A stretch of DNA of 31,285 nucleotides from Geobacterales bacterium (lineage in GTDB: Bacteria; Desulfobacterota; Desulfuromonadia; Geobacterales; Pseudopelobacteraceae): contig JBGSQR010000500.1 of the NCBI GenBank assembly GCA_041737975.1, positions 1-31,285 of the forward strand, given 5' to 3'. Positions 4,002 through 16,211 of the stretch are shown here, piece by piece. The notes below the pieces were generated by a model, which was not told the DNA's origin, did no database searches, and worked only from the letters and a program-made list of their open reading frames with translations. Position 1 is the stretch's first letter. Each line of letters begins with the position of its first letter. A program made the translations under genes and the position numbers.

Positions 4002-4048
4002 AAACTATTAGTGCCCATCCGGAGATTCCTGATGGGCACTAATAGTTT
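4002..4048. terminator. Bidirectional terminator between convergent genes; bounds the tail of the cassette array
   Basis: 18-bp perfect inverted repeat AAACTATTAGTGCCCATC / GATGGGCACTAATAGTTT. Confidence 0.8.
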
Positions 4049-4116
4049 CATTCCAAATAAATTTAATACAACAGCGTGATCAACTATCGTGCAGCCAGGC
4101 TCATAAGCTTGATATT

Positions 4117-4473
4117 TTAATTATTTATCCATTCAATCGCTTCAGCTCGATCCCTGAAGATCTTCATAGTGGGCGAGACATGTTCCATGGAAGCATATAC
4201 TGAATACATTCGCAAAATACCAAACTCCACATCTGCTGAACAGACATATGCAGTTTTTTTGTGTATGGCACACTTTTTTACCATTTGTGCGATACGAGTC
4301 ATGTCATTAGCACTGAGACTTAAATTGCTTCCGTCTTTATAATTCCACAGCACACCTTTAGAGAAATTGCAGTAATGACTATTTATAATAGCAAGTACCT
4401 CGTCAAGAGAACTCTGACCATCCAACACAAACTCGACTATAGAACCTGGCTCAATAATATTAGTTTTAATCAC
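4117..4473 (-). CDS. Small STAS/SEC14 (SpoIIAA-like) hypothetical protein, probable terminal cassette
   Basis: Likely GTG start at 4473 after GTTAGAC core and AAGGA RBS; TAYVCSADVEFGILRMY...IFRDRAEAIEWIN resembles the SpoIIAA-like pattern. Confidence 0.6.
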   Translation of the reverse strand: MIKTNIIEPGSIVEFVLDGQSSLDEVLAIINSHYCNFSKGVLWNYKDGSNLSLSANDMTRIAQMVKKCAIHKKTAYVCSADVEFGILRMYSVYASMEHVSPTMKIFRDRAEAIEWINN

Positions 4474-4493
4474 TAATGATTTCCTTCTCTTTT

Positions 4494-4569
4494 GTCTAAC
4501 GGCCATGAAGTTGACCCACCGGTTTTTGGACGGGTCGTAACAGATTCATCTCCGGATCGTCGATTAGCC
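4494..4569 (-). repeat. Degenerate attC-like site
   Basis: Minus strand GGCTAAT...ATGAA-tct-GTT-ac-GACCC...GGGTC-AAC-TTCAT...GTTAGAC; R' and inner stem present, R'' has AAT instead of AAC. Confidence 0.55.
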
Positions 4570-4582
4570 CCAGATCGAATTC

Positions 4583-5785
4583 CTACTGCTCAGTCGCCTT
4601 CGACTTAAATATGCCGATTTGCTGACCCTGCGGAATGGTAATGGAGTCGATACCCTGCTCTATTAAGGTGATAACCATGGAACCACCATAGGCAAAGTGA
4701 CCGAGCATATCTCCCTTATTGATTGGGACTACTCTGGGCGCGGCTACGTTTCTGAATGCATCCTCAAACATCACCGAACCGATTGTGTCCAGTCCAACGG
4801 GAATCATTGCAATATACCCGTACTCCTTGGTTTTTATTACAACATAGCCGCGCCGGAAGTGTTCAAACACGCTGTAGCTCTGACCGTATCCGATATTCCC
4901 TTTGTTCACAAAGGCGGGAAAGTCGGGAATTCCCGAGTACTGTCCGGCAACATCATCGTGGGATTCCACGACAGTGCCCGAAGCGACGAAATGATAATTA
5001 TGGTAGGTATTCGGTAACAGAATGCAGGAAATTGCGGTCCCATTTTTAAATTTTTCCGCATAGTTCGAGCCGTTCAGCAGTTCCCTGATATTCAGCTTTT
5101 GATTCAACTTCGTAGAAACCCTGGTATCCGGCGTCAAAGGCTGAATCATATTCAGCACGCAATCTGTAGGCGCCACCAGGACCGAGTCATCCGTGGGGCT
5201 TGCGATTGTTCTCTTGCCAGGCTTCAATTTACGGGTGAAGAATTCGTTGAAAGACCGGAATCCGCTGGTAGGAATGATATAATCATCAATGTGATTGGTC
5301 GGGTCGGCCATCCACTGGGAAATGGTACCCGTCGACAGTGTGCTGTCCATGAATTTTCCGCGTGACACTACGAAATCCTTGGTCCAGCCCAAACCTGGCT
5401 CTTTCCCTACGATCTGTTGGCCATATTCGTTATCGTAATAGAACCCGCCAAACATGGTAATGAAGTTGAATTCGTCGACCTTCTGACCGGGAGGGAACAG
5501 CGAGGGAGGGGGATTCTTGCCGTTGACCGGCAGCAAAGCATACCAGTCATTAAAAAAAGAACAGAAGTCCTTGAACGTTCTGCCTTTCCAGGGATTTTGC
5601 GCGCCGTTATACGGAGACTTGATATTTGCAAGCGCCTTATCCATTGTCTTTTTAAATTCAGGATTGGTGCTGTACAGTTTTTTCAAATCCACCACCGGGG
5701 GAGCGTCCGGCTCCGCCGAAGACCAGTTAGCCGAAAACATGAGACATCCAAAAATGCAGAAGGCAGCGATTTGAATCATTTTCAT
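4583..5785 (-). CDS. Exported phosphatidylserine-decarboxylase-family (pyruvoyl) enzyme
   Basis: GGAG RBS before ATG 5785; signal peptide ending WSSA; FFTRKLKPGKRTIASP, APTDC, LLPNTYHNYH, and GHFAYGGSM self-cleavage motif. Confidence 0.8.
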   Translation of the reverse strand: MKMIQIAAFCIFGCLMFSANWSSAEPDAPPVVDLKKLYSTNPEFKKTMDKALANIKSPYNGAQNPWKGRTFKDFCSFFNDWYALLPVNGKNPPPSLFPPGQKVDEFNFITMFGGFYYDNEYGQQIVGKEPGLGWTKDFVVSRGKFMDSTLSTGTISQWMADPTNHIDDYIIPTSGFRSFNEFFTRKLKPGKRTIASPTDDSVLVAPTDCVLNMIQPLTPDTRVSTKLNQKLNIRELLNGSNYAEKFKNGTAISCILLPNTYHNYHFVASGTVVESHDDVAGQYSGIPDFPAFVNKGNIGYGQSYSVFEHFRRGYVVIKTKEYGYIAMIPVGLDTIGSVMFEDAFRNVAAPRVVPINKGDMLGHFAYGGSMVITLIEQGIDSITIPQGQQIGIFKSKATEQ

Positions 5786-5799
5786 TGTCGTCTCCAAGG

Positions 5800-5806
5800 G
5801 TTAGAT
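5800..5806 (-). other. Isolated attC R'' box (rest of attC missing)
   Basis: ATCTAAC immediately follows the TAA of the 5807-6163 gene, then runs straight into the RBS of the next gene with no palindrome or GTT core. Confidence 0.45.
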
Positions 5807-6163
5807 TTATTTCAGTGCATTGAGATGTAGTCTCTTCCTGGCCTCTCTGAAAAACAACGGTTTTAGAACTTTATAAAGCCCGACTTGTCCAATGTGCTCC
5901 AGAAAGCAAGTAGTGATAGCATTTTCTGGATTTTCACCAGCATTAACTGCCGAATTAATAAGAATTGCAAGTCCTTCAATCTGCTGGTTGCTGAATTGGT
6001 AAATCTTTCCGGATAAGTATGGCAGAATGGTCATGTAGACTGCGGAAAGATTAAATATCCCATCTTCCTTGATATATGAGTTTTCATCGTCCCATTCCTC
6101 CCTGAATCCAGGAGACAGCACAATAAGTTCATCTAAAATTTTATTGGGTGTTTGGTAATTCAT
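5807..6163 (-). CDS. Cassette-encoded small acidic hypothetical protein (CFLE motif)
   Basis: ATG 7 nt after the GTTAAGC core; 118 aa; NAITTCFLEHI motif. Confidence 0.8.
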   Translation of the reverse strand: MNYQTPNKILDELIVLSPGFREEWDDENSYIKEDGIFNLSAVYMTILPYLSGKIYQFSNQQIEGLAILINSAVNAGENPENAITTCFLEHIGQVGLYKVLKPLFFREARKRLHLNALK

Positions 6164-6170
6164 ATTTATT

Positions 6171-6228
6171 GCTTAACGGGGTGTTCGGTTGACCGGCCAT
6201 CAGGCCGCGTCTAACCGGCTGGTTATAC
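6171..6228 (-). repeat. attC site (58 bp)
   Basis: Minus strand GTATAAC-cagccg-GTTAGAC...GGTCAAC-cgaacacccc-GTTAAGC; R and L boxes visible. Confidence 0.9.
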
Positions 6229-6383
6229 TTTGGGGGCTGATATGTTTATCAAAAGTTTTATTTTCGGTGCGCCTATTGTTGTATTAATTTTGGCGATTAC
6301 TGGACTGTTTGTACATGATTATGTGCTTTCGATTATATCTGGGGTTGCTTTAATTTTACTCATGCCATTGTTGAAAGCGTATC

Positions 6384-6932
6384 CTAATTGGTGCGAGCGT
6401 CCACATGATGAAAGTGATTATGATTAGGGTCATAACGCCATGTTTCATTAACTTCAAACTCTTCTTTTGTAATGCCTTGGTACTTTATGTTTACTGTTAC
6501 ATCTAGGATGGTTTTACCACTAATAATGTTTTCATAGTCTGCGCCTGTTTTTAGCCTTATGCTGTGTGCAACTTGTGGAAAAAGGTTCGAGTTGCTGTCA
6601 TAAACATCCTCATTGGAGCGATGGGCCTTGTGGCCATCGAATAGCATATCGTACTTTATACGCACATTACTGGCAGGCACTGTGCCAAAGTTTTTATAGT
6701 TCACATAAAACAACAGGTGTTTATTATCGTCTTTATTTATTTTAAATGATTCTATGCCGACATATGGCCTATTCGCTGACTTGTAAATGTTTTTGGTTAT
6801 TTCAGTGTATTCACTTGTTTTTACGCCTACATAAATAGCCGCTCCAACATTAATTACAGTCGCAGCAGCGATCACAATGGTGGCAAGTGTAATCGGGTCT
6901 TTCCATGTTTTTTGTGAGTTTTTATTTGTCAT
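6384..6932 (-). CDS. Cassette-encoded membrane-anchored hypothetical protein
   Basis: ATG 11 nt after GTTATAC core; N-terminal hydrophobic segment ITLATIVIAAATVINVGAAIYVGV; 182 aa. Confidence 0.8.
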   Translation of the reverse strand: MTNKNSQKTWKDPITLATIVIAAATVINVGAAIYVGVKTSEYTEITKNIYKSANRPYVGIESFKINKDDNKHLLFYVNYKNFGTVPASNVRIKYDMLFDGHKAHRSNEDVYDSNSNLFPQVAHSIRLKTGADYENIISGKTILDVTVNIKYQGITKEEFEVNETWRYDPNHNHFHHVDARTN

Positions 6933-6943
6933 TTTTTTAGTCC

Positions 6944-7018
6944 GTATAACGGGGTGCCCGGTTCACCCGCATCGCCCGGTTTCTCAGGGCGGGGCGGCGT
7001 GCAACCGGCTGGTTGGAT
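6944..7018 (-). repeat. attC site (75 bp)
   Basis: Minus strand ATCCAAC...GTTATAC; interior differs from 7634-7708 at only 2 of 61 positions. Confidence 0.92.
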
Positions 7019-7024
7019 GTTTTT

Positions 7025-7621
7025 TCACTGTCCTGTAAATTTCCACCGAAAATTTTTCATTTCAATTTCTTTTTGTATGCCGTCAATTTCAAGGTATTTC
7101 TTCTTATCTTTATGGATCATTGGGGTCCACTTTGAATTGTAGTAAAGAGCTACGCTTTTTCCTGGCCCAACTTTCGCGTCATATTGACCATCAAGGTTGC
7201 TATCAATGAATGAAACACCCGATACTATATTGTTTGAATAATTGTACGACTCAAATTCTCCGGTTGATTCGTTGTAGTTCACACTGATGGCTCTATTCTT
7301 TGCATCAACAATGCTAAAGGATGGGCCATCAAAAAAATCTGTATTATTTGTGATATTTATTTGCGGAAAACGACGCTTGGATGGATACATGATTGCTTCT
7401 GTTTTTGAAGAATTACCTGGCACGAAAACAGTAAATGCTCCAAGCTTACCTGTTTTTGCTTCAGTTACCCAGGGAGCTATCATCTTCATGGCTTTTTTAT
7501 TGTCATCATCTGGCCACTTAGCCGTAATGTCTTGTGGCCTAAATTTAAAATAGCCAATAGCAGAAAGAACAACCACTCCCGCTAAGAAACCTAATCCAAA
7601 TGACTTCCAATTCATTTTCAT
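7025..7621 (-). CDS. Cassette-encoded membrane-anchored or exported hypothetical protein
   Basis: Start corrected to ATG 7621 (GGAG RBS, after GTTGGAT core); the longer track ORF reads through the attC; N-terminal FGLGFLAGVVVLSAIGYF. Confidence 0.8.
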   Translation of the reverse strand: MKMNWKSFGLGFLAGVVVLSAIGYFKFRPQDITAKWPDDDNKKAMKMIAPWVTEAKTGKLGAFTVFVPGNSSKTEAIMYPSKRRFPQINITNNTDFFDGPSFSIVDAKNRAISVNYNESTGEFESYNYSNNIVSGVSFIDSNLDGQYDAKVGPGKSVALYYNSKWTPMIHKDKKKYLEIDGIQKEIEMKNFRWKFTGQ

Positions 7622-7633
7622 TCTCCGTGTGCC

Positions 7634-7708
7634 ATCCAACGGGGTGTCCGGTTCACCCGCATCGCCCGGTTTCTCAGGGCGGGGCGGTGTGCAACCGGCT
7701 GGTTGTGC
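7634..7708 (-). repeat. attC site (75 bp)
   Basis: Minus strand GCACAAC...GTTGGAT; near-identical to 6944-7018. Confidence 0.92.
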
Positions 7709-7719
7709 GGTTAGCCTTG

Positions 7720-8070
7720 TCAGAGCCCAAGGACTGCTAGGCAATCTTCTCTCTCCAGTTGTCTCCGAATCCAAACGGTCAATTCGTCAATTAGCTTTTT
7801 TGTATCTTTCTGTTTTGAATCAAAATTCTGTAAGGTGAGATCATTAAGAATCATATTCCATTGTTCCTTTGATATGTCAGTGAATGCGTAGTGATCATAA
7901 TCTGGCACGTGGCGTTCAAATGCAGGCTCAATTAAGCTAAAAACCTCTTCGTCAAAGAAAATTGAGCCGTCTTGCCAGCAAGAACCTTTGTACTTGCCTG
8001 GCATTATTTCGAAATAGCAAGTGCCTTTTAGCTCATTTTTCTCAGTGATGATTTTAATTGGTATTTGCAT
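7720..8070 (-). CDS. Cassette-encoded small acidic hypothetical protein
   Basis: GTTGTGC-AGGAG-AAAAG-ATG; 116 aa, soluble. Confidence 0.82.
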   Translation of the reverse strand: MQIPIKIITEKNELKGTCYFEIMPGKYKGSCWQDGSIFFDEEVFSLIEPAFERHVPDYDHYAFTDISKEQWNMILNDLTLQNFDSKQKDTKKLIDELTVWIRRQLEREDCLAVLGL

Positions 8071-8080
8071 CTTTTCTCCT

Positions 8081-8150
8081 GCACAACGGTGTCGAGGCTC
8101 AGCGGCGGCGCGGCTTTATCGGGCGGCCTGCGTCCAGCCGAGAGTTGGGA
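8081..8150 (-). repeat. attC site (70 bp)
   Basis: Minus strand TCCCAAC...GTTGTGC, GC-rich palindromic interior with GGCT/AGCC inner arms. Confidence 0.85.
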
Positions 8151-8178
8151 CTTCGCGTTTTTTTCTACTTTTCTCTAT

Positions 8179-8262
8179 TCAAGGGCTGACCCCGTTGGTT
8201 CTTCCACCGAAGAGGATGAAAGCGTTTTTACGAGCTTTTGGATCAGCCTTGAGAATTGTCAT
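8179..8262 (-). pseudogene. Probable truncated cassette ORF (27 aa, MTILKADPKARKNAFILF...)
   Basis: Only reasonable ORF in a ~130 bp cassette between two att cores; stops just as a hydrophobic segment begins. Confidence 0.45.
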
Positions 8263-8276
8263 TTTTCATCTCTTGT

Positions 8277-8297
8277 GTCCAACGGACTTGGTTAGTA
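8277..8297 (-). repeat. Internally deleted mini-attC (21 bp)
   Basis: Minus strand TACTAAC-caagtcc-GTTGGAC located exactly where an attC is expected; no L boxes. Confidence 0.65.
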
Positions 8298-8318
8298 TTT
8301 GACTCTCGCAGGCAATTC

Positions 8319-8594
8319 TCATTTCACTTTGCTGCTTTTTAAGATCAACAACGCTACACGGAGTAATACGATTCCAATCCCGGAAAATGCCACTCCTATG
8401 ATGACGGCGACAAGCCCTTTACCGATGCTAATTTCTCCTGCTTTTGTCCTGAAAGCAATATTCTGATCAATGATGCCATCATTGACGCCATAATAGATAA
8501 CTCCCAAAGCCACCAAGAAAACAAGAAAGGCAACTATCCCTCCCATCCACGAGGGCAGCACAAGATCATCACGATGGTCAGATTGTAGATTCAT
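8319..8594 (-). CDS. Cassette-encoded two-TM small membrane protein
   Basis: ATG after GTTGTAC core and AAGGA RBS; two hydrophobic segments. Confidence 0.78.
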   Translation of the reverse strand: MNLQSDHRDDLVLPSWMGGIVAFLVFLVALGVIYYGVNDGIIDQNIAFRTKAGEISIGKGLVAVIIGVAFSGIGIVLLRVALLILKSSKVK

Positions 8595-8612
8595 TCTGGT
8601 TCCTTATATGTC

Positions 8613-8677
8613 GTACAACGTGGTGGGGGCGCACCGGCGAAGCACAGCGAAGGCCGTGTGCCGCCGCCTAGTTGGGC
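8613..8677 (-). repeat. attC site (65 bp)
   Basis: Minus strand GCCCAAC...GTTGTAC; interior 42/51 identical to 9941-10005. Confidence 0.9.
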
Positions 8678-8720
8678 ATTGCAATTTCTCATGTCTGGGT
8701 AGCCACTTTCGACTCTTCCC

Positions 8721-9908
8721 TTATCGTCCGGAGCAGCCAGGAAGCCACTTTGAGAGCAATTCGTTCATTTTAATTTGGTCGGTTGCCAGGTCAATAGCCG
8801 GTGATGCTGTTTTCGAAGCTGTAAGTCGATGACAGAGTACATCCACTTTATTTCCAACATATGTAATATACTCAATAGAGATTTCATTCGCTTTCTCATT
8901 GTAGCCAACAATTCTATTTGCCTCTGGAATTGCTGTATCATTTAATATAACTTCGGCTATTAAATTGCCGTTTCGAGAGAACTTCTGAATTGAAATATCA
9001 TTCTTCCATGAAAAGCTGTTTCGACCAATTAACCAAATAGCGTTTTCAGAGCAAACCATACGATCAGGATCAGCCATTGCGATAGCTTGACAACGATTTC
9101 CATCTTCAGCATCAAAGAGGATTGCCGTTCCGCTCAGTTCTATTGAACCGTTGCTAGCTTTTTTGGAAATAGAATTAAATTCCATCTTGTCTTCGCAATT
9201 ATACTGCCTTTTCCAAGTGATTGTTTCGTTAGGGTATACATTCGCCAGTATCTTGGGTGGTAAGGTTTTAGAAGTAACAAGATGTTCGACCGACGGTGGT
9301 TTATTATTTTGGCATGGTTGAGGGGCTGCTGGGTTGAAATTGCCTTGTGGAATAAAGGTTTGATCAATAAGCGACTTTTCTGTTATGCCATCCGGGCAGT
9401 GTTTGCCATGGAATACTTCATCACCCTCCCTGAAATATTGAATCATTTCGCTGAGACGTTTTTTATCGGAAATACGCTCAATCCAAGTTATGTACTTATA
9501 GACTGAAACATCTTGTAGCTTCCAAAAGTCGGAGCGTCTCTTTATTACATAATCATTAAGTATGATGCGGCTATGGTCTTTAGAAGACAAATCCTCTTCT
9601 CTTGGGGTTGCAAATTGCCCTCTCTGGAGTGATATACTTTCAAAAACGCGTATACCACCATCTTCTTTACACATTGGGGCAATTTCTTTGTCCGCAAGCT
9701 TTCTTTTACTTTGCATTATATGAATTGGCACTATCATAAGCCCGTATAAAACGACTCCAGCCATAAGCACTCTGATACCCCATTTGTTTATTTGAATGCG
9801 TATAGGGTTCAAGTTCTGTGACTGTTGAGTTCTAGAATCAATTATGAAAAGTGAGTAAATTATGTAGGCACCAATTAGCAAAAATATTATGCTTACTAAC
9901 GTAGTCAT
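8721..9908 (-). CDS. Cassette-encoded membrane-anchored protein with large Cys-containing extracytoplasmic region
   Basis: 395 aa; two N-terminal hydrophobic segments; AAAGGT RBS after GTTGGAC core. Confidence 0.8.
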   Translation of the reverse strand: MTTLVSIIFLLIGAYIIYSLFIIDSRTQQSQNLNPIRIQINKWGIRVLMAGVVLYGLMIVPIHIMQSKRKLADKEIAPMCKEDGGIRVFESISLQRGQFATPREEDLSSKDHSRIILNDYVIKRRSDFWKLQDVSVYKYITWIERISDKKRLSEMIQYFREGDEVFHGKHCPDGITEKSLIDQTFIPQGNFNPAAPQPCQNNKPPSVEHLVTSKTLPPKILANVYPNETITWKRQYNCEDKMEFNSISKKASNGSIELSGTAILFDAEDGNRCQAIAMADPDRMVCSENAIWLIGRNSFSWKNDISIQKFSRNGNLIAEVILNDTAIPEANRIVGYNEKANEISIEYITYVGNKVDVLCHRLTASKTASPAIDLATDQIKMNELLSKWLPGCSGR

Positions 9909-9940
9909 AAACTACCTTTCTGTGATGTTATAGCTTGATC

Positions 9941-10005
9941 GTCCAACGTGGCCGGGGCGCACCGGCGGAGCGGAGCGAAGACCGTGTGCCGCCTCGTGGT
10001 TAGAT
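9941..10005 (-). repeat. attC site (65 bp)
   Basis: Minus strand ATCTAAC...GTTGGAC; the TAA of the upstream gene lies inside R'', a common cassette trait. Confidence 0.92.
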
Positions 10006-10578
10006 ATGATTTTTCTCGAAAACCCATGCCACCAGGAAAAAGATCAATAGTCCAGCGTAGGTTATGCTATTGCATATCCAGTTTAGTTTTTCTGGGGTCA
10101 TCCTGCCTGTAAATTCTCGGTTTTTCCATCTCTTGCTCAAAACTTTGGTTTCATACCGCACCGTCAGAAAAAATGTCATCAGCAACCAGAATCCAGTCAT
10201 ACCAATTGAGAGTTTCGGGTACTTGATCCCCTCATAAACCCACGTACCAAGGGCTAGTAAAACATCTCCGACACCCCAAGGGATGAAAAGCCCAAACCAA
10301 GAAATGAGCCCTATCGCGAATGGGAAGCCGAAGCCCACGACAATTGTGGAGAGTATGTTAGTAACCAGAGAGTCCCAAAAGGCCAAGTCTCTTGGAACTC
10401 CCGCGAGTCGTACATACAGAAACCACTCAATAAGGATGATAAGGATACTTCCATAGAGAAATGCAAGGAAGTTGAAGATAAGAAGGAGCGGCCCTCCGCC
10501 GTCTGCGAATCCTATGGAGGGAGTCAGGACCACCAACGCTATGATACTAGAAAACATCCATTTTTTGTTTTTCATCAT
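10000..10578 (-). CDS. First cassette: polytopic membrane protein with signal peptide
   Basis: Start corrected to ATG 10578, 15 nt after the GTTAGAT core; signal peptide ending GFA plus about four hydrophobic segments. Confidence 0.8.
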   Translation of the reverse strand: MMKNKKWMFSSIIALVVLTPSIGFADGGGPLLLIFNFLAFLYGSILIILIEWFLYVRLAGVPRDLAFWDSLVTNILSTIVVGFGFPFAIGLISWFGLFIPWGVGDVLLALGTWVYEGIKYPKLSIGMTGFWLLMTFFLTVRYETKVLSKRWKNREFTGRMTPEKLNWICNSITYAGLLIFFLVAWVFEKNHI

Positions 10579-10593
10579 TGGCCTTTTTTCAGT

Positions 10594-10671
10594 ATCTAAC
10601 TCGTTATTGAGCGGTATCCGTATATAAGTGACTTGTGACTTATATAGGTGAACTGTATCGTATATAAGTGA
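10594..10671 (-). other. Candidate attI site with accessory direct repeats
   Basis: Minus strand GCTCAAT-AACGA-GTTAGAT (L box, 5 bp, R box); GTTAGAT is the exact complement of the first cassette R''; no attC palindrome upstream; TATATA(A/G)GTGA at 10621, 10641, 10661. Confidence 0.7.
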
Positions 10672-10842
10672 TCTTGAAGTCACCGATATAAGCTGCTTCT
10701 TTCTTTATCTATCGCCAAAGCCGGTAACAGGTATAGGTGACTTTTACTCCGTATAGCTGTTCTACCGATTAGGTCTGCCCGCACTAACATGCTGCCTCCA
10801 CCATCGAAACCTCTCAGAAAACCAATCAAATAAACCATTGGA

Positions 10843-10871
10843 ACTATACGAGATGTTTTAGAGGCTGTAAA
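10843..10871 (-). promoter_or_regulatory. Candidate Pc cassette promoter (sigma70)
   Basis: TTTACA-17 bp-TATAGT with AT-rich upstream tract, pointing at attI about 245 bp away. Confidence 0.6.
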
Positions 10872-10973
10872 TTAAAATTAACTTCAGAGAAGGAGTTTTA
10901 TTGATAATATTTTATGCGGCGAAGTGATGTTTTTTGAGCGAGGACTCTATGATTAGTTTTTACAATCTATTTG

Positions 10974-11891
10974 TTAATCAGCTGCAAGCGCCTCATTAAT
11001 ACAGAACTCAACACAAAGCCCGCAGGCGGTGCAGTTGACGGCATCAAATTCAAATGGTGGCTGGGATTCATCGTAGTTTTCCAGCAAGGCACCGGTGGGG
11101 CAAACTTTTGTACAGGCCCGGCAGCCGTCGCAACTTTCTCCTCGTAACAAGCTACCGGCAAAAACCGCAATTAGCCGCTTTTGTTCTTCCTCCGGCTGCT
11201 TTCCCAAAACCGTTTTCAGCAAGGCTCGTCCTAACGTCAGCTGCTTCTCCGCATATACCTTGTTTTCCGGGTCTTGAACTGTTTTGGGTGATAGCAAGGT
11301 GGCCGCCTCGCTGACAATCGATCTGGTCAGGGAACGAAAAAATCCGCGCCGGTCACAGGTTTCCCCATGAAAGATCAACTGTTCCGGTGACTCGACCAAC
11401 TGGATTTTGCTGCTGATCGGCAGCTGACTACGCGCCTCGACTGTGGCCAGCTTTTCCTTGATTTTTTTTATTCTGTCATTATTTGCGCAGGCACTGCAAC
11501 CGGTCAGATTAAGGCTGATACCGGGCGTTTCGGCCAGAAACAGGGCCATTAAAATCTCTTCCGAGATGAAGGCCAGGCATGGTGTTTTCAGATGTGAATC
11601 CTGAGTGGCCTTTTGGCAGGCGATAACAATGGCGGTCTGTTGCTGCAGGACTTTCAAGAATGACGACAAGACAATATCCGGACTCAAGGCTCCGCTGGGA
11701 CAGGCCGCAGAACAGAGCTGGCAGCCAGTACAGAGATAACTGTCCAGGACCAAACCGCCGTCAAAACTTAACGCATTATTCGGACAGACATCCAGACACC
11801 GGCGACAACTGCTGGCGCTGAATCTCATCCTCAGACAACTTGACTGGGAGACCTTTGGCAGGGGCATTTTATTTCGAGAGTCTTTTTTCAT
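10974..11891 (-). CDS. Poly-4Fe-4S ferredoxin-type protein, last gene of the arr operon
   Basis: CRRCLDVCP, CTGCQLCSAACP, CDGCRACTKVCP, CTACGLCVEFC motifs; 4-bp overlap with arrD. Confidence 0.85.
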   Translation of the reverse strand: MKKDSRNKMPLPKVSQSSCLRMRFSASSCRRCLDVCPNNALSFDGGLVLDSYLCTGCQLCSAACPSGALSPDIVLSSFLKVLQQQTAIVIACQKATQDSHLKTPCLAFISEEILMALFLAETPGISLNLTGCSACANNDRIKKIKEKLATVEARSQLPISSKIQLVESPEQLIFHGETCDRRGFFRSLTRSIVSEAATLLSPKTVQDPENKVYAEKQLTLGRALLKTVLGKQPEEEQKRLIAVFAGSLLRGESCDGCRACTKVCPTGALLENYDESQPPFEFDAVNCTACGLCVEFCINEALAAD

Positions 11892-12514
11892 TCATCCTGT
11901 GTAGGTAAAGTGGTCGCAATAACAAGTTCAGTAACATCAGCCAGGGCCTGATAGAATGGACTGTCGGAATTTGCGCGCAGAGCCTCGCAGAACCTGTCAG
12001 ACCAGTGCCCCAGAAACCTTTCCCTGAAATTGACGGCCCTATCCAGCCAGAGTGAGACTTCCGCCTGATCGTCTGAAGAAGCAGCCTTTTGCAGACAGTA
12101 GGAGACAAACTCCAGTTCAACTGCGATGTGATCCGGCATTTCAGTGAATTCCGCATCCATGACCAGACCGGACTCACGGTAAAACTGCAGCACCGCCTGG
12201 GTTGACTCACCCATTACCCGCCGGTCATGCTCCAGATAAACCGAGCCGTAGGGCGGAGCCTGCAGGGACATGGGCCCCACAAACAGCCGGGCATATTCAA
12301 CTGTCAGTTCATCCATGTCAGAGCCACTCCAGGCTTCACACATTGTCCGGGCTGCCGTGGCAAGCTGTGTAGAAATACCGGTGCAAAGCAGGGTCAGATT
12401 TGATATCAGTCCGGCCTGGTTCCATTGCGGGTCAGGCTGATAGTAACATGCCGACAACAGTCGATAGGCCGCTTCTTGATCGGCAAGTTGTTTTTTTAAT
12501 TCAGAATTGGGCAT
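11888..12514 (-). CDS. arrD: TorD/DmsD-family molybdoenzyme chaperone
   Basis: EYARLFVGP...APPYGSVYL...MPDHIAVELEF motifs; position in the arr operon. Confidence 0.88.
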   Translation of the reverse strand: MPNSELKKQLADQEAAYRLLSACYYQPDPQWNQAGLISNLTLLCTGISTQLATAARTMCEAWSGSDMDELTVEYARLFVGPMSLQAPPYGSVYLEHDRRVMGESTQAVLQFYRESGLVMDAEFTEMPDHIAVELEFVSYCLQKAASSDDQAEVSLWLDRAVNFRERFLGHWSDRFCEALRANSDSPFYQALADVTELVIATTLPTQDE

Positions 12515-12533
12515 ATTGACCTTTAATAAAACA

Positions 12534-12558
12534 GGCCGGGATTATATCAACCCCGGCC
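12534..12558 (-). terminator. Hairpin between arrB and arrD (internal terminator or stabiliser)
   Basis: GGCCGGG / CCCGGCC arms followed by TGTTTTATT on the minus strand. Confidence 0.45.
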
Positions 12559-12577
12559 CGGTAATCAGCTGCAATGA

Positions 12578-13348
12578 TCAGGCTTTTTTATCGCCCTTGA
12601 AGTTGCGGATATAGTAGACATTAGGGCTGGTGCCCTCCGCTTCCTTGAGACGCATGCCTTTGTATTTCTTGAGCAGCTTGGCCGGTTCACTGGCCGGATC
12701 ATTCAAGTCACCGAAGATGCGTGCCTGTGACGGACAGGCTTCAACGCAATAAGGCATTAAACCCTGCTTGACCCTGTGATCACAGAAAATACATTTTTCT
12801 ACCACGCCTTTTCTACGGATGCTTCCATAATCAGGGTGGCTGTGCTTGTTCTGATATGGCGGCGCAGCCCCGGCCAGCCTGGAAACTTCTGCGCCGGAGG
12901 CGGTACAACCCTTTATCAACTCTGTAGAATCACGATAAAAGGCATGCGGCTCTGCACCGGAAGCGTTGTAACTGATAACGCTGTAGGCGGCCTTTTGCTT
13001 ATCCACATCCGTGGCGCTGTAGGGGCACTCCTTCTGACAGCGACGACAGCCGATGCAGCGGGCTTCATTGTGCATAGTGATGCCATCCGCAGTTTTAAAC
13101 ATCGCCTTGGGGGTCACCGGGCAGGCGTCAACACAGGGCGCATCACTGCAATGATTGCAGAGTACCGGCATGGCAGTAAAGGCTATCTCAGGGAACTGAC
13201 CCTCTTCTTTGTAGATAAAGTCAGCCCAGTTATAGGTCTGCCCTTTGTCTGCAGCCTGAGTATTATTTTCGGTTTTGCAGGCAAAGGCACAGGCACCGCA
13301 GCCGACACATTTCTGAAGATCTATGACCATTCCGTATTTTTTTGGCAT
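12578..13348 (-). CDS. arrB: Respiratory arsenate reductase Fe-S subunit
   Basis: YGMVIDLQKCVGCGACAFAC, CNHCSDAPCVDACP, CIGCRRCQKECPY, KCIFC...CVEACP; directly downstream of arrA. Confidence 0.92.
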   Translation of the reverse strand: MPKKYGMVIDLQKCVGCGACAFACKTENNTQAADKGQTYNWADFIYKEEGQFPEIAFTAMPVLCNHCSDAPCVDACPVTPKAMFKTADGITMHNEARCIGCRRCQKECPYSATDVDKQKAAYSVISYNASGAEPHAFYRDSTELIKGCTASGAEVSRLAGAAPPYQNKHSHPDYGSIRRKGVVEKCIFCDHRVKQGLMPYCVEACPSQARIFGDLNDPASEPAKLLKKYKGMRLKEAEGTSPNVYYIRNFKGDKKA

Positions 13349-13367
13349 TTAAGTTATCCCCCCTTTC

Positions 13368-15935
13368 CTAAACCTTCTCGATCTTGACGCCGGTGAAACC
13401 GCCGTTACGCGCCGTGGCGCCGCTGAGACGATCATAATCGTCAACCAGGATCTCATTGTTATTGCCGCCGCGCGGAGCTGCCTTGGCGTAGTCTTTGGCT
13501 GCAACCCTGCCGTAGGCCCAATGTCCCTGACCGTAGCATTTTGCAGCAGTTCCGGGACGAACACCTTCCCAGAGCTTGACCTTGGTAACAATCGACCCGG
13601 TAGTAGAGGAAATTCTCACGGTATCGCCGGTTTTCAGACCCAGTTTTTTACCGTCAATCGGGTTGATCTTGACCACATCTTCCCAGGGCTCATCGCCAAT
13701 ATCGACCTTTTTGAACTCCTGGTACCAGGTCAGGTTGGCACTGCGGCCTTCGCGATTCAGACGGGATTTGTAATCGATAAAGGTAAATGGATATTCTTTT
13801 TCGCTGCCGTGACGCTTGGGTGATTCGTAATGCGGTACAAAGGCCAGCTCGCCTTTGGCTTCGTAACCACTGACCTTTAGAATATCATCCACCGTGGTGT
13901 TATGCTTCTTGGCGTGTTCTTCCAGCGCCTTCTTCATTGTCAGGCTGTAGAACTCAAATTTCTTGGATTCTGTTTTGAACTTGCCCTCGAACTTCTTGGT
14001 TTCAGGATTATCCTTGCCCCAGTTTTTCTTGTAGGCATAGGTCTCCGAATTATAGATCCCTTTCTTGCGGAATTCGGCCCAACTGGACAGCTTGTCGCCC
14101 TTCAGTTTTTCCTTGCCGTTCCAGACCTTCTGAGAAGAGATCCTGGCGGCAATTTCCGTAAATTCGGCAGCATTGGCAGGCTTCTTCTTTGTCTCCGGAT
14201 CCTCGAATGAGGCGTAGTAGTCATACAGATTGGCAAATCCACGGGCCTTTAATTTTTCAGCCAGCAGCCACATCACCTCTACCTCTTCAGACTTCACATC
14301 CCAAAGTTTTTTGCCGACCGGCTGCTGTATTGACATATGCCCGTGCAGGTTGGCCATGTTGGAGATGATGGATAACTTCTCCGTCGGCGCGAAAGTGGCT
14401 GGCAATACGATATCGGCAAACTGGGTCATCTCCGAGGCATTGGTGACCATGTGGACAAAGAAGGGGATCTTTGCCATTGCTTTGTCCCAGCGCTGGGCGC
14501 CGGTACAGGAGAAGTTGAAGTTGCTCCAACTGCTGATGAATACTTTGATGGCTCCCGGATTTTTCAGCAATCCATTGGCAACATTGTTGGTAACAACGCC
14601 GCTGCCCGGTTTGCCGCCCATCATGGCCGGCATGTCCTTGGCGCCGCGTCCGTCGAGTTTTTTGCCCTTGCCGGATTTCTTGGCCAGCTCATCCAGAAAA
14701 TTATCCTTGATTTCTGGAAACTTGGTGGTCGGGACGCTGGAACTCTGGAATACGCCACCCGGTGTTTCGATGGAGCCCAGCAGTCCGTTCAACGCATATA
14801 CCGCCATGGAAGCATAGGTACCGCGCGGGCTCATGCCCACACCCGGCCCCATCCAGACTGCGCAGGCGCTGCCGGCCTTACCCATGCTGCGGGCAACACG
14901 AATGATCTGCTCCTCCGGAATCAGGGTTTTACCCTCTGCCCAGGCCGGTGTTTTATCCTTAATCTCCAGGTTCCACCACTTGATTACGCCGTGGGTCTGC
15001 TTCTCCACAAAAGCGGCTTCATCAACGGTTTGTCCGGTTTTGAACAGATTTTTGCCTTCCTTGAAATCGCCGACAAAATCTCTGCTCCACATGCCTTCGG
15101 TCATGATCACATGGGCAATGGCCGCTGCCAGGGCACCGTCTTCACCCGGCTTAATCGGCAGCCATTCATGGGCCTTGGCTGCTGAGGCGTTAAAACGCGG
15201 ATCAACGGCAATGACTGTCCCCTGGTCAATCACATTACTGAACTTGGCGATGGCATTCGGCACCTGGCGGTTGGAGGAAAGCGGATCACAGCCCCATATA
15301 ACCAGGCATTTTGTCTTGGCCAGGTCGTAGTCGCGATATCCGAAGAAACCCTGGGTATAGCCCGGCCCCATCTTCTCGGCTTCGGCACAGATGGCACTGT
15401 GTGAAAAGTAGTTTGGTGTGCCGAATATTTTTGGGAGGGTTCCATAGAGCAAATCAGTGGCAGTCGATGAGTAGCGTCCACGCATGTACATCAGCTTTTC
15501 CGGCTCATTGGCCTTGCGCAGCTCCATCATTTTATCGGCAACCATGTCCAGCGCCTCGTCCCAGGATATGGGCACAAACTTGGGATCGATGCCGCGCCCT
15601 TTGAGAGGATTGGTTCGCTTCATCGGCACTTTGATGCGGTCAGGATCATAGGCCTGCTGGATCATCAGGTGTCCGCGCGGACAACAGTAGCCTCCGTTTG
15701 CTTTGGAAAGCTGGTTACCGCGAACTTTAACCACCCGGCCTTCCTGCACCAGGAATTCTACCGGGCACCAGGCGGTACAGCCCTGGCAGGTCGATGGAAT
15801 CCAACTACCAGCCGGCGAGGTCTGGTTTGCAACCGCCTTATCAGCTGCAAAGGCATTCAGCCTGGGCAGGCCGACTGTTGCCATGGCACCAACAGCAGCA
15901 GTAACTTTCAGAAAATCTCTGCGTTTGATCTTCAT
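13368..15935 (-). CDS. arrA: Respiratory arsenate reductase molybdopterin catalytic subunit
   Basis: Tat signal KRRDFLK; CQGCTAWC...CPRG Fe-S motif; RGRY and SHSAICAE motifs characteristic of ArrA. Confidence 0.96.
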   Translation of the reverse strand: MKIKRRDFLKVTAAVGAMATVGLPRLNAFAADKAVANQTSPAGSWIPSTCQGCTAWCPVEFLVQEGRVVKVRGNQLSKANGGYCCPRGHLMIQQAYDPDRIKVPMKRTNPLKGRGIDPKFVPISWDEALDMVADKMMELRKANEPEKLMYMRGRYSSTATDLLYGTLPKIFGTPNYFSHSAICAEAEKMGPGYTQGFFGYRDYDLAKTKCLVIWGCDPLSSNRQVPNAIAKFSNVIDQGTVIAVDPRFNASAAKAHEWLPIKPGEDGALAAAIAHVIMTEGMWSRDFVGDFKEGKNLFKTGQTVDEAAFVEKQTHGVIKWWNLEIKDKTPAWAEGKTLIPEEQIIRVARSMGKAGSACAVWMGPGVGMSPRGTYASMAVYALNGLLGSIETPGGVFQSSSVPTTKFPEIKDNFLDELAKKSGKGKKLDGRGAKDMPAMMGGKPGSGVVTNNVANGLLKNPGAIKVFISSWSNFNFSCTGAQRWDKAMAKIPFFVHMVTNASEMTQFADIVLPATFAPTEKLSIISNMANLHGHMSIQQPVGKKLWDVKSEEVEVMWLLAEKLKARGFANLYDYYASFEDPETKKKPANAAEFTEIAARISSQKVWNGKEKLKGDKLSSWAEFRKKGIYNSETYAYKKNWGKDNPETKKFEGKFKTESKKFEFYSLTMKKALEEHAKKHNTTVDDILKVSGYEAKGELAFVPHYESPKRHGSEKEYPFTFIDYKSRLNREGRSANLTWYQEFKKVDIGDEPWEDVVKINPIDGKKLGLKTGDTVRISSTTGSIVTKVKLWEGVRPGTAAKCYGQGHWAYGRVAAKDYAKAAPRGGNNNEILVDDYDRLSGATARNGGFTGVKIEKV

Positions 15936-16016
15936 TCCGTTTCCCTCCTTACCTTTTGTGATACCGAGAAAACAACCATTGTTAAAAGATGTTTGAATTA
16001 TTAAACCAGCGTTCTA

Positions 16017-16047
16017 ATCTATATATCCGCTTTTCAGGATAAATCAA
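16017..16047 (-). promoter_or_regulatory. Degenerate copy of the acr3 operator upstream of arrA
   Basis: Minus strand TTGATTTATCCTG-AAAA-GCGGATATATAGAT versus TTGAATGTATCCGC-CAAA-GCGGATACATTCAA at 20293-20324. Confidence 0.6.
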
Positions 16048-16166
16048 GGGTTTAATAAAGTATTTCAGTCAACATTTTTTTGAGTTTATCCCACTAACCG
16101 CACCACCTATTTAGTACCTCAGAGGTATACTTATGATATTGCGAAGAAAATATTCAATTAGAACGC

Positions 16167-16211
16167 TTGACAACGGCCAGCACCAAGACTATATGATTAT
16201 ATAATCATATA
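16167..16211 (+). promoter_or_regulatory. Promoter of first arsR with a perfect 22-bp palindromic operator
   Basis: TTGACA at 16167-16172; TATATGATTATATAATCATATA at 16190-16211 covers the -10 region. Confidence 0.75.

Follow-up and report, generated by a model that had tools for sequence, protein, structure and literature searches.

Clusters of attC sites that have no integron integrase (CALINs) were defined by Cury et al. 2016 (PMC4889954), who counted loss of intI among their origins, noted that the same genome often has an IntI at another locus, and proposed that cassettes are mobilized in trans. CALINs occur frequently, and questions attach both to how they arise and to whether they are active, one reason being that attI is unrecognizable outside a few integron classes; in that survey, attI could not be sought outside classes 1–3 (PMC4889954). 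The subject here is an integrase-less cassette array in a 31,285-nt stretch of DNA (the window), which is the entire contig C27 of a fragmented metagenome-assembled genome (MAG; 637 contigs, 3.64 Mb, 89% complete) of the Geobacterales. The element is a CALIN that keeps its attI, a state common in the Geobacter family, and the array with its attI is probably what is left, on the cassette side, of a chromosomal integron of the Geobacteraceae whose recombinase side has been lost.

Like the CALINs of PMC4889954, the window carries two or more co-oriented attC sites without an intI in their vicinity, and it has no intI pseudogene, as is true of 95% of CALINs. Unlike them, its attI, accessory repeats, and platform promoter are retained and could be identified by comparison. 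The attI1 of class 1 integrons, with its repeats DR1 and DR2 (Partridge et al. 2000, as relayed in PMC3146285), is also similar to the head of the array: both are simple sites ending in GTTRRRY, with short repeats upstream and no attC-type palindrome. It differs from the sites described below, which have 3–5 phased palindromes of ~18 bp that vary by subfamily of a neighboring gene (here called geneX) and are mostly not IntI-box-like, and in which the palindromes lie downstream of that extra gene, putting attI ~0.9 kb from intI. Sedentary chromosomal integrons of the Vibrio cholerae type (PMC8191803, PMC11023631) share with the window a chromosomal setting, cassettes without known function, within-genome similarity of the attC sites, and a low-GC array. 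They are built around one platform, whereas the array of the window is small, has no integrase in cis, and belongs to a genome with several attI heads. The chromosomal integrons of Treponema (PMC3607928) likewise represent a lineage gaining and losing platforms, although in a different clade. What differs here is that the retained attI, repeats, and promoter are identifiable, that the clade’s platform includes an extra gene and its own palindromes, and that geneX itself has been deleted.

The sequencing runs closest to the window among public data are biofilm and hot-spring metagenomes. Both the nearest homologues of geneX and the related loci carry Geobacteraceae names (Geobacter, Geomonas, Geotalea, and Pelotalea), which assigns the window to that family, and the array is a low-GC tract within a higher-GC chromosome.

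On the minus strand of the window, seven junction elements are built like attC: an R″ box that ends in AAC comes first, then a GC-rich imperfect palindrome, and finally an R′ box of the form GTTRRRY. Because no Rfam family matches the attC sites of the window, covariance models were built for this analysis. The first (R1) was made from an alignment of the window’s own six best sites, and the second (R2), in order to avoid circularity, from 30 attC sites of arrays beside intact intI in other genomes only. In the R2 training alignment, 94% of the cells were paired, 10 of 11 stem pairs showed compensatory changes, and every control scored far lower. With this independently trained model, six of the elements in the window, every one of them in minus-strand orientation, reached 34–60 bits (E between 2e-5 and 4e-11): attC a (10005-9941, 53 bits), b (8677-8613, 59.8 bits), c (8150-8081, 33.9 bits), d (7708-7634, 53.1 bits), e (7018-6944, 51.4 bits), and f (6228-6171, 54.1 bits). 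By fold, R2 score, and covariation, R″ and R′ boxes flank an imperfect palindrome with a variable loop in all six, and the consensus fold of the six-site alignment has unpaired bases in its 5′ arm as well as compensatory changes. Two pairs are near-identical (d and e, 97%; a and b, 84%). The seventh element (4569-4494, minus strand) is a degenerate attC-like site with an R′ box GTTAGAC and a score of 8.9 bits. A stemless R″–R′ mini-site at 8297-8277 on the same strand (ACTAAC, 7 nt, GTTGGAC; 9.1 bits) occupies an expected attC position and looks like an attC minus its central palindrome. A first-pass annotation, made from the sequence alone, had described six intact attC sites and eight to ten cassettes; the R2 scores bear out the former, and a count of GTT junctions agrees with the latter. 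Applied to the same MAG, R1 recovered more sites, including one located 155 nt upstream of a complete intI on contig C366, and in relatives it found dozens, always on the strand predicted by the adjacent platform. Recombination of the window’s attC sites as folded bottom strands by IntI is presumed. With six co-oriented attC sites within 4 kb and no intI on the 31-kb contig, the locus is classified as a CALIN; of the components of a complete integron as defined in IntegronFinder, it has the attC sites and lacks a nearby intI.

At the head of the array lies the attI region (10594..10787, minus strand), consisting of the spacer that follows geneX in relatives, a set of repeats, and the core ...TCAATAACGA|GTTAGAT. 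The crossover falls between G10600 and T10599, with GTTAGAT at 10600-10594. The same annotation had called this head site attI-like on account of its missing attC palindrome, and indeed neither R1 nor R2 scores an attC there. The 190 nt upstream of GTTAGAT are 72–92% identical to array heads in no fewer than eight genomes of the family, as well as in contigs C319 and C210 of the MAG, and behind each copy stands an unrelated gene, with attC sites beyond it. When the site was aligned with 27 others from related Geobacteraceae (28 in total), some of them directly beside intI, the core ...TCAATAACGA|GTT was conserved and the information content dropped immediately past GTT, which is the pattern expected of an attI crossover. 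The core ...AACGA|GTTRRRY is common to all repeat subfamilies, including sites ~0.9 kb from an intact intI. The same attI core stands beside intI-geneX in loci L022-L031, and the repeat subfamily of the window is also found beside intact intI in L030 (G006:C12) and L045. The boundary with cassette 1 is exact: relative to an internal cassette of another genus (L036; 76% nucleotide and 80% amino acid identity), homology starts precisely at GTTAGAT and stops at the R″ box, and the L036 homologue stands behind an ordinary attC. Furthermore, the attI sites of L014 and L026, which come from different genera and have different repeat subfamilies, carry first cassettes that open identically (GTTGAACTAA.CCGCTTCGCGG), consistent with one cassette having been captured twice. 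The site thus stands ahead of the first cassette, terminates in GTTRRRY at the junction with it, has no attC-type palindrome, and is conserved in the lineage on the cassette side of intI. Given the conserved core, the collapse of information past GTT, the exact boundary of cassette 1, and the L014 and L026 cassettes, we conclude that it is, by homology, a true attI that has been active at least historically.

The repeats that precede the core comprise three direct copies of TCAC(T/C)TATATA(C/A)G with an exact 20-bp period (10671-10659, 10651-10639, and 10631-10619, minus strand), together with an incomplete one at 10740-10731 and one in inverted orientation at 10691-10680. Equivalent phased palindromes are present in every geneX-attI locus, and their sequence varies with the geneX subfamily (TTATATA type, CATATACATGTAGATG type, and AATAATAGA type), with the attI core common to all. 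The repeats of the window at 10619..10671 are putative geneX-binding palindromes.

In ten loci with an intact intI, the order of elements is intI, divergent promoter, geneX, 3–5 phased palindromes, attI core, and cassettes. The general rule, carried over by the first-pass annotation, that intI lies immediately beside attI does not apply in this clade, where geneX (115–123 aa) and the palindromes intervene. This gene is annotated only as hypothetical, and lies upstream of most copies of the attI-like element; a search of 41 relatives placed it beside intI, in divergent orientation, at 16 loci. It was present in 61 of 75 genomes of the order, as opposed to 8 of 75 from elsewhere in the class. 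A fold model of its product (predicted local distance difference test, pLDDT, 88) had no match in the PDB; in the AlphaFold DB, only uncharacterized relatives were found, and the C-terminus is weakly like DUF5710. Literature searches yielded no description of geneX or of a Geobacteraceae attI. To our knowledge, no extra platform gene is known from the integrons of Treponema.

A further 80 geneX(-attI) loci from other species were surveyed, and intI was sought within 3 kb of each. All 84 attC hits at these loci were downstream of geneX and on its strand. An intact intI lay upstream at 12 loci (always divergent) and intI fragments at 6, leaving 62 with no intI within 3 kb; fragments also adjoin geneX in L034 and L039. 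The range from intact intI through fragments to none at all is a decay series. In view of these counts, and of the three attI heads without integrase in this MAG alone, the suggestion that the window is “unlike a typical CALIN” could not be upheld for this family.

How the platform of the window was lost can be read on both sides of its surviving promoter. This sigma-70-type promoter (TTTACA-17-TATAGT; 10843..10871, minus strand) has 10 of 12 consensus matches and points into the array. In the form TTTAATTTACAG ... CGTATAGT, it recurs in the integrase-linked loci L022-L028 and L030, where it separates the start of intI from geneX, and it is also found in L034, where intI has decayed, and in L019, which has no intI. 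By this conservation, it is the clade’s predicted promoter for geneX and the cassette direction. The sigma70 promoter and cassette promoter (Pc) proposed earlier are supported as a conserved, outward-facing element, but the element is the promoter of geneX, the coding sequence of which has been deleted here along with intI.

The promoter is part of a platform remnant (10788..10886, minus strand) that also includes the 5′ leader, ribosome-binding site, and ATG (10790-10788) of geneX. The remnant is 84% identical to a segment of G002:C5 (L019:8929-9026), whose ATG opens a geneX homologue, and weakly matches the canonical intI-geneX spacer of G002:C2. Past its own ATG, the window runs straight into the region that follows the geneX stop codon in subfamily-A modules, which indicates that the geneX coding sequence was deleted. 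The join shows only a 5-nt microhomology (AGCAT), and the ATG now opens an unrelated frame of 37 codons in place of the geneX coding sequence of a full platform. An intact geneX of the same subfamily is located on C319. On the opposite side, homology with canonical platforms stops ~14 nt before the −35 box; since ~30–40 nt separate the start of intI from that box in canonical loci, intI has been removed entirely. In agreement with the earlier observation that no integrase adjoins the array, a TIGR02249 profile search had no match on the window contig, and tblastn of both IntI proteins of the MAG against the window gave a best E of 0.37, with no IntI remnant or IntI-like translation. The intI side was lost in what is now a unique non-coding spacer (10887..10973, no strand assigned) between the end of the arsenate-respiration (arr) operon and the remnant, for which no homologue was found in the same genome or in the fetched loci.

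Deletion or displacement of intI, possibly by the arsenic island, had been proposed at the outset. In the island, arrA, arrB, a gene for an arrD-type chaperone, and a ferredoxin gene extend over 15935-10974, with ars genes beyond. In G002, a member of the same genus, the promoter remnant lies 35 nt from a homologue of the window’s arsR (16190 onward), with neither arr nor intI. Since the integrase-less junction is shared and in G002 has no arr operon, intI was already missing in the common ancestor, and the arr operon did not displace it. Of the original proposal, then, the loss itself holds, intI being gone and not merely unassembled, and displacement by the arsenic genes does not; the intI that this comparison might have revealed at ~10.7-11 kb is absent from G002 as well. 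The locus on G002:C5 retains one good attC and has no cassettes in common with the window. A plausible sequence of events would begin with loss of intI before the genus diverged, given that G002 shares the integrase-less junction next to arsR. Removal of geneX would have followed, by illegitimate deletion or by recombination at the AGCAT microhomology, and the former spacer between promoter and arsR would be where this genome acquired the arr operon or G002 lost it.

The first-pass annotation left the array either frozen or served in trans. A profile search for IntI elsewhere in the genome, which it had proposed, found matches to TIGR02249 on C366 and C407 only. The IntI of C366 is intact (352 bits against a cut-off of 265); it aligns with VchIntIA (2A3V) at E 6e-69, covering the integron-specific insertion and the C-terminal catalytic motifs. 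The second IntI, 79% identical to it, is incomplete, contig C407 ending within it. Neither geneX nor attI accompanies the intI of C366, and the attC upstream of its start belongs to the family of the window (54 bits with R1), while the attI sites of this assembly are confined to the three integrase-less heads on the window, C319, and C210. In addition, the orthologous integrase-less loci L047 and L067 share their upstream flank and a 95% identical module and carry wholly different cassettes. Such differences favor integration in trans at orphan attI sites, without being proof of it at the window locus. Within attC e and attC f, public metagenome contigs diverge from the window (attC f has loose ends at 6175 and 6219), so the same attC sequences have other neighbors in the community. 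Service in trans is thus a plausible part of the original alternative.

Of the platform, the window still has the promoter, palindromes, attI core, and start codon of geneX, and it also has the array, whose cassette 1 lies exactly at the attI crossover. At present, the conserved promoter would transcribe across attI into the first cassettes, and the attC and attI sites would be substrates for the intact IntI of C366 and perhaps also for the partial one of C407. Cassettes could then still be excised, inserted at the attI of the window, and exchanged with other arrays, and the palindromes would probably be bound by the geneX protein from the same-subfamily copy on C319. That the locus works in this manner, combining promoter read-through with IntI in trans and binding by the C319 geneX, is rather more probable than not. 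A broader proposal is put forward tentatively, at somewhat below even confidence: Geobacteraceae integrons may be distributed, with 1–2 IntI serving several autonomous pads spread along the chromosome, each made up of promoter, geneX, palindromes, and attI, and with geneX acting as a third component of the platform, an attI-specific DNA-binding accessory factor that lets pads endure and go on capturing cassettes without an integrase in cis, in which case the pad of the window would depend on the C319 copy.

Other explanations bear on these conclusions to different degrees. The array and attI could be real and yet a frozen relic, that is, a set of decaying former cassettes that no longer recombine, expressed or not from the surviving promoter. 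Both geneX and intI are deleted in cis, as this would have it; degeneracy of the final attC, the stemless mini-site at one junction, and the absence of attC from the tail unit fit as well, and the same junctions recur in contigs of three samples from one study. Six attC sites and the attI core are nevertheless intact, the three phased repeats are perfectly spaced, and the MAG has both an intact IntI and attC sites of the same family; the complete difference in cassettes between orthologous integrase-less loci of other species and the divergence of metagenome contigs inside attC e and f also point away from a relic, which we regard as unlikely on this balance, if worth keeping in view. There is a much slimmer chance that the head element is not attI at all and is only a geneX operator array or a secondary insertion site, at which the cassettes arrived by some other route. 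Its repeats resemble IntI boxes in the TTATATA subfamily (GTTAC half-sites) and in no other, and binding at the head repeats is predicted. Against this stand the core, conserved over all repeat subfamilies and also present ~0.9 kb from an intact intI, and the abrupt end of similarity at the crossover. Homologous cassettes, moreover, open with an identical GTT..., whether they stand behind an attC, as in one genome, or behind the head site, as in the window, and the first cassettes of the L014 and L026 subfamilies open with the same sequence.

An assembly or binning artefact, with intI-geneX really present at 10.7-11 kb or a foreign array misjoined to the arr contig, is very improbable. The MAG is highly fragmented, integrons often break assemblies, and depth is low at 10772-10893; public contigs are short and shallow, with one spanning 10440-10772 (attI to cassette 1) and two spanning the end of arr (10893-11043 and 10916-11359). 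The case for continuity across 10772-10893 is therefore made by the assembly itself, by synteny with G002, which speaks for the right-hand side, and by the lack of any long repeat at the join. The join, however, shares 5 nt only and no genomic repeat of the region exceeds 77% identity, so a de Bruijn assembler had nothing to collapse there. Between 10.6 and 11.0 kb, neither a loose end nor a joint was reported, loose ends being confined to attC e and f, and the promoter remnant beside the ars cluster is common to the window and the same-genus G002. Misassembly at 10.7-11 kb, named in the first-pass annotation as what might overturn it, has left no sign, although read support is thin, and it is hardly to be expected.

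Several points nonetheless count against an integron half served from elsewhere in the cell. In so fragmented a MAG, a common cellular origin of C366, C407, and C319 with the window contig is presumed and not proven, and none of the listed public contigs bridges 10772-10893. The degenerate seventh attC and the attC-less tail unit mean that part of the array is decaying. Cassette differences between orthologous loci may in part reflect independent decay and not new insertions, and recombination and transcription at the window locus are predictions from sequence comparison.

Since attI is recognizable by comparison in this clade, many integrase-less arrays can be seen as whole landing pads and not as stray cassettes. 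A MAG that has an attI-less intI (C366) and three intI-less attI heads is a direct test case for service in trans. The platform gene geneX, with the palindromic sites between it and attI, would be an addition to the described components of integrons.

Eight numbered cassettes and a tail unit, all on the minus strand, follow attI. Cassette 1 (9947..10599) has a membrane-protein open reading frame (ORF) at 10578-10000 and attC a, and cassette 2 (8619..9946) has an ORF at 9908-8721 (395 aa), with no Pfam, NCBIfam, or PADLOC match, and attC b. Cassettes 3 and 4 (8087..8618) comprise an ORF at 8594-8319 (91 aa) that runs to the mini-site, followed by a short unit ending in attC c. Cassettes 5 and 6 (6950..8086) consist of an ORF at 8070-7720 with attC d and an ORF at 7621-7025 with attC e; the protein of cassette 6 is 45% identical to that of the first cassette at a canonical attI (L024). 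Cassette 7 (6177..6949) carries an ORF at 6932-6384 (182 aa) and attC f. Cassette 8 (4494..6176), possibly two fused cassettes, holds a DUF7674-like ORF (6163-5807; weak match to PF24722 in Pfam) and an ORF for an exported protein of the phosphatidylserine-decarboxylase family (5797-4583; PF02666 in Pfam, E 4e-35), and ends at the degenerate site. The tail unit (4002..4493) has an ORF at 4473-4117 (118 aa) without a family match. It is closed by an inverted repeat (4002-4048) whose 22-nt arms match perfectly around a loop of 3 nt, situated between this last ORF and a convergent PfpI-like gene and probably a bidirectional terminator rather than an attC. Cassette proteins are usually without family matches; in the window, none matched PADLOC or NCBIfam, and Pfam gave only the decarboxylase-family domain and the weak DUF7674. 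A search for inverted repeats that could be transposon ends around the array found none that were convincing.

The array adjoins a cluster for arsenate respiration and arsenic resistance in a variable chromosomal region of a hot-spring or biofilm member of the Geobacteraceae. Aligned with G002 (L019:9026-9061), the entire segment at 10887-16189, which includes the arr operon and its flanks, represents an insertion here or a deletion in G002, and its site is the short spacer from which the integron promoter remnant and arsR diverge.

On C366, the sequence at 2143-2596 (L001:740-1193) includes part of a group II intron, whose 3′ end (58 bits with Rfam RF00029) lies ~280 nt beyond the attC, with a stump of a maturase-like ORF (45 aa) before it and a putative PIN-type toxin-antitoxin pair after it. 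This intron end may be the remnant of an attC-targeting intron. Treating C366 and the window contig as halves of one split integron was not supported, as they have no homology beyond the intI coding sequence. A geneX-like fragment at the start of contig C60 (C60:4-156) was considered as the continuation of the truncated intI on C407 and rejected, being a paralogue with the N-terminal domain only (52 aa) in another, non-integron context; the N-terminal domain of geneX is thus also used beyond integron platforms.

In L020, L040-L047, L058, and L067, a module of ~570 nt made up of geneX, palindromes, and attI is 70–95% identical between species. The upstream flanks of these loci are mostly unrelated, with similarity beginning at about the geneX start, and the module seems to relocate as a unit. 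A smaller exchange may have taken place within cassette 1, where at 9999-10005 the ORF and R″ box are common to the window and L036 and the remainder of the attC is unrelated, which suggests that attC bodies can be exchanged independently of the cassette gene.

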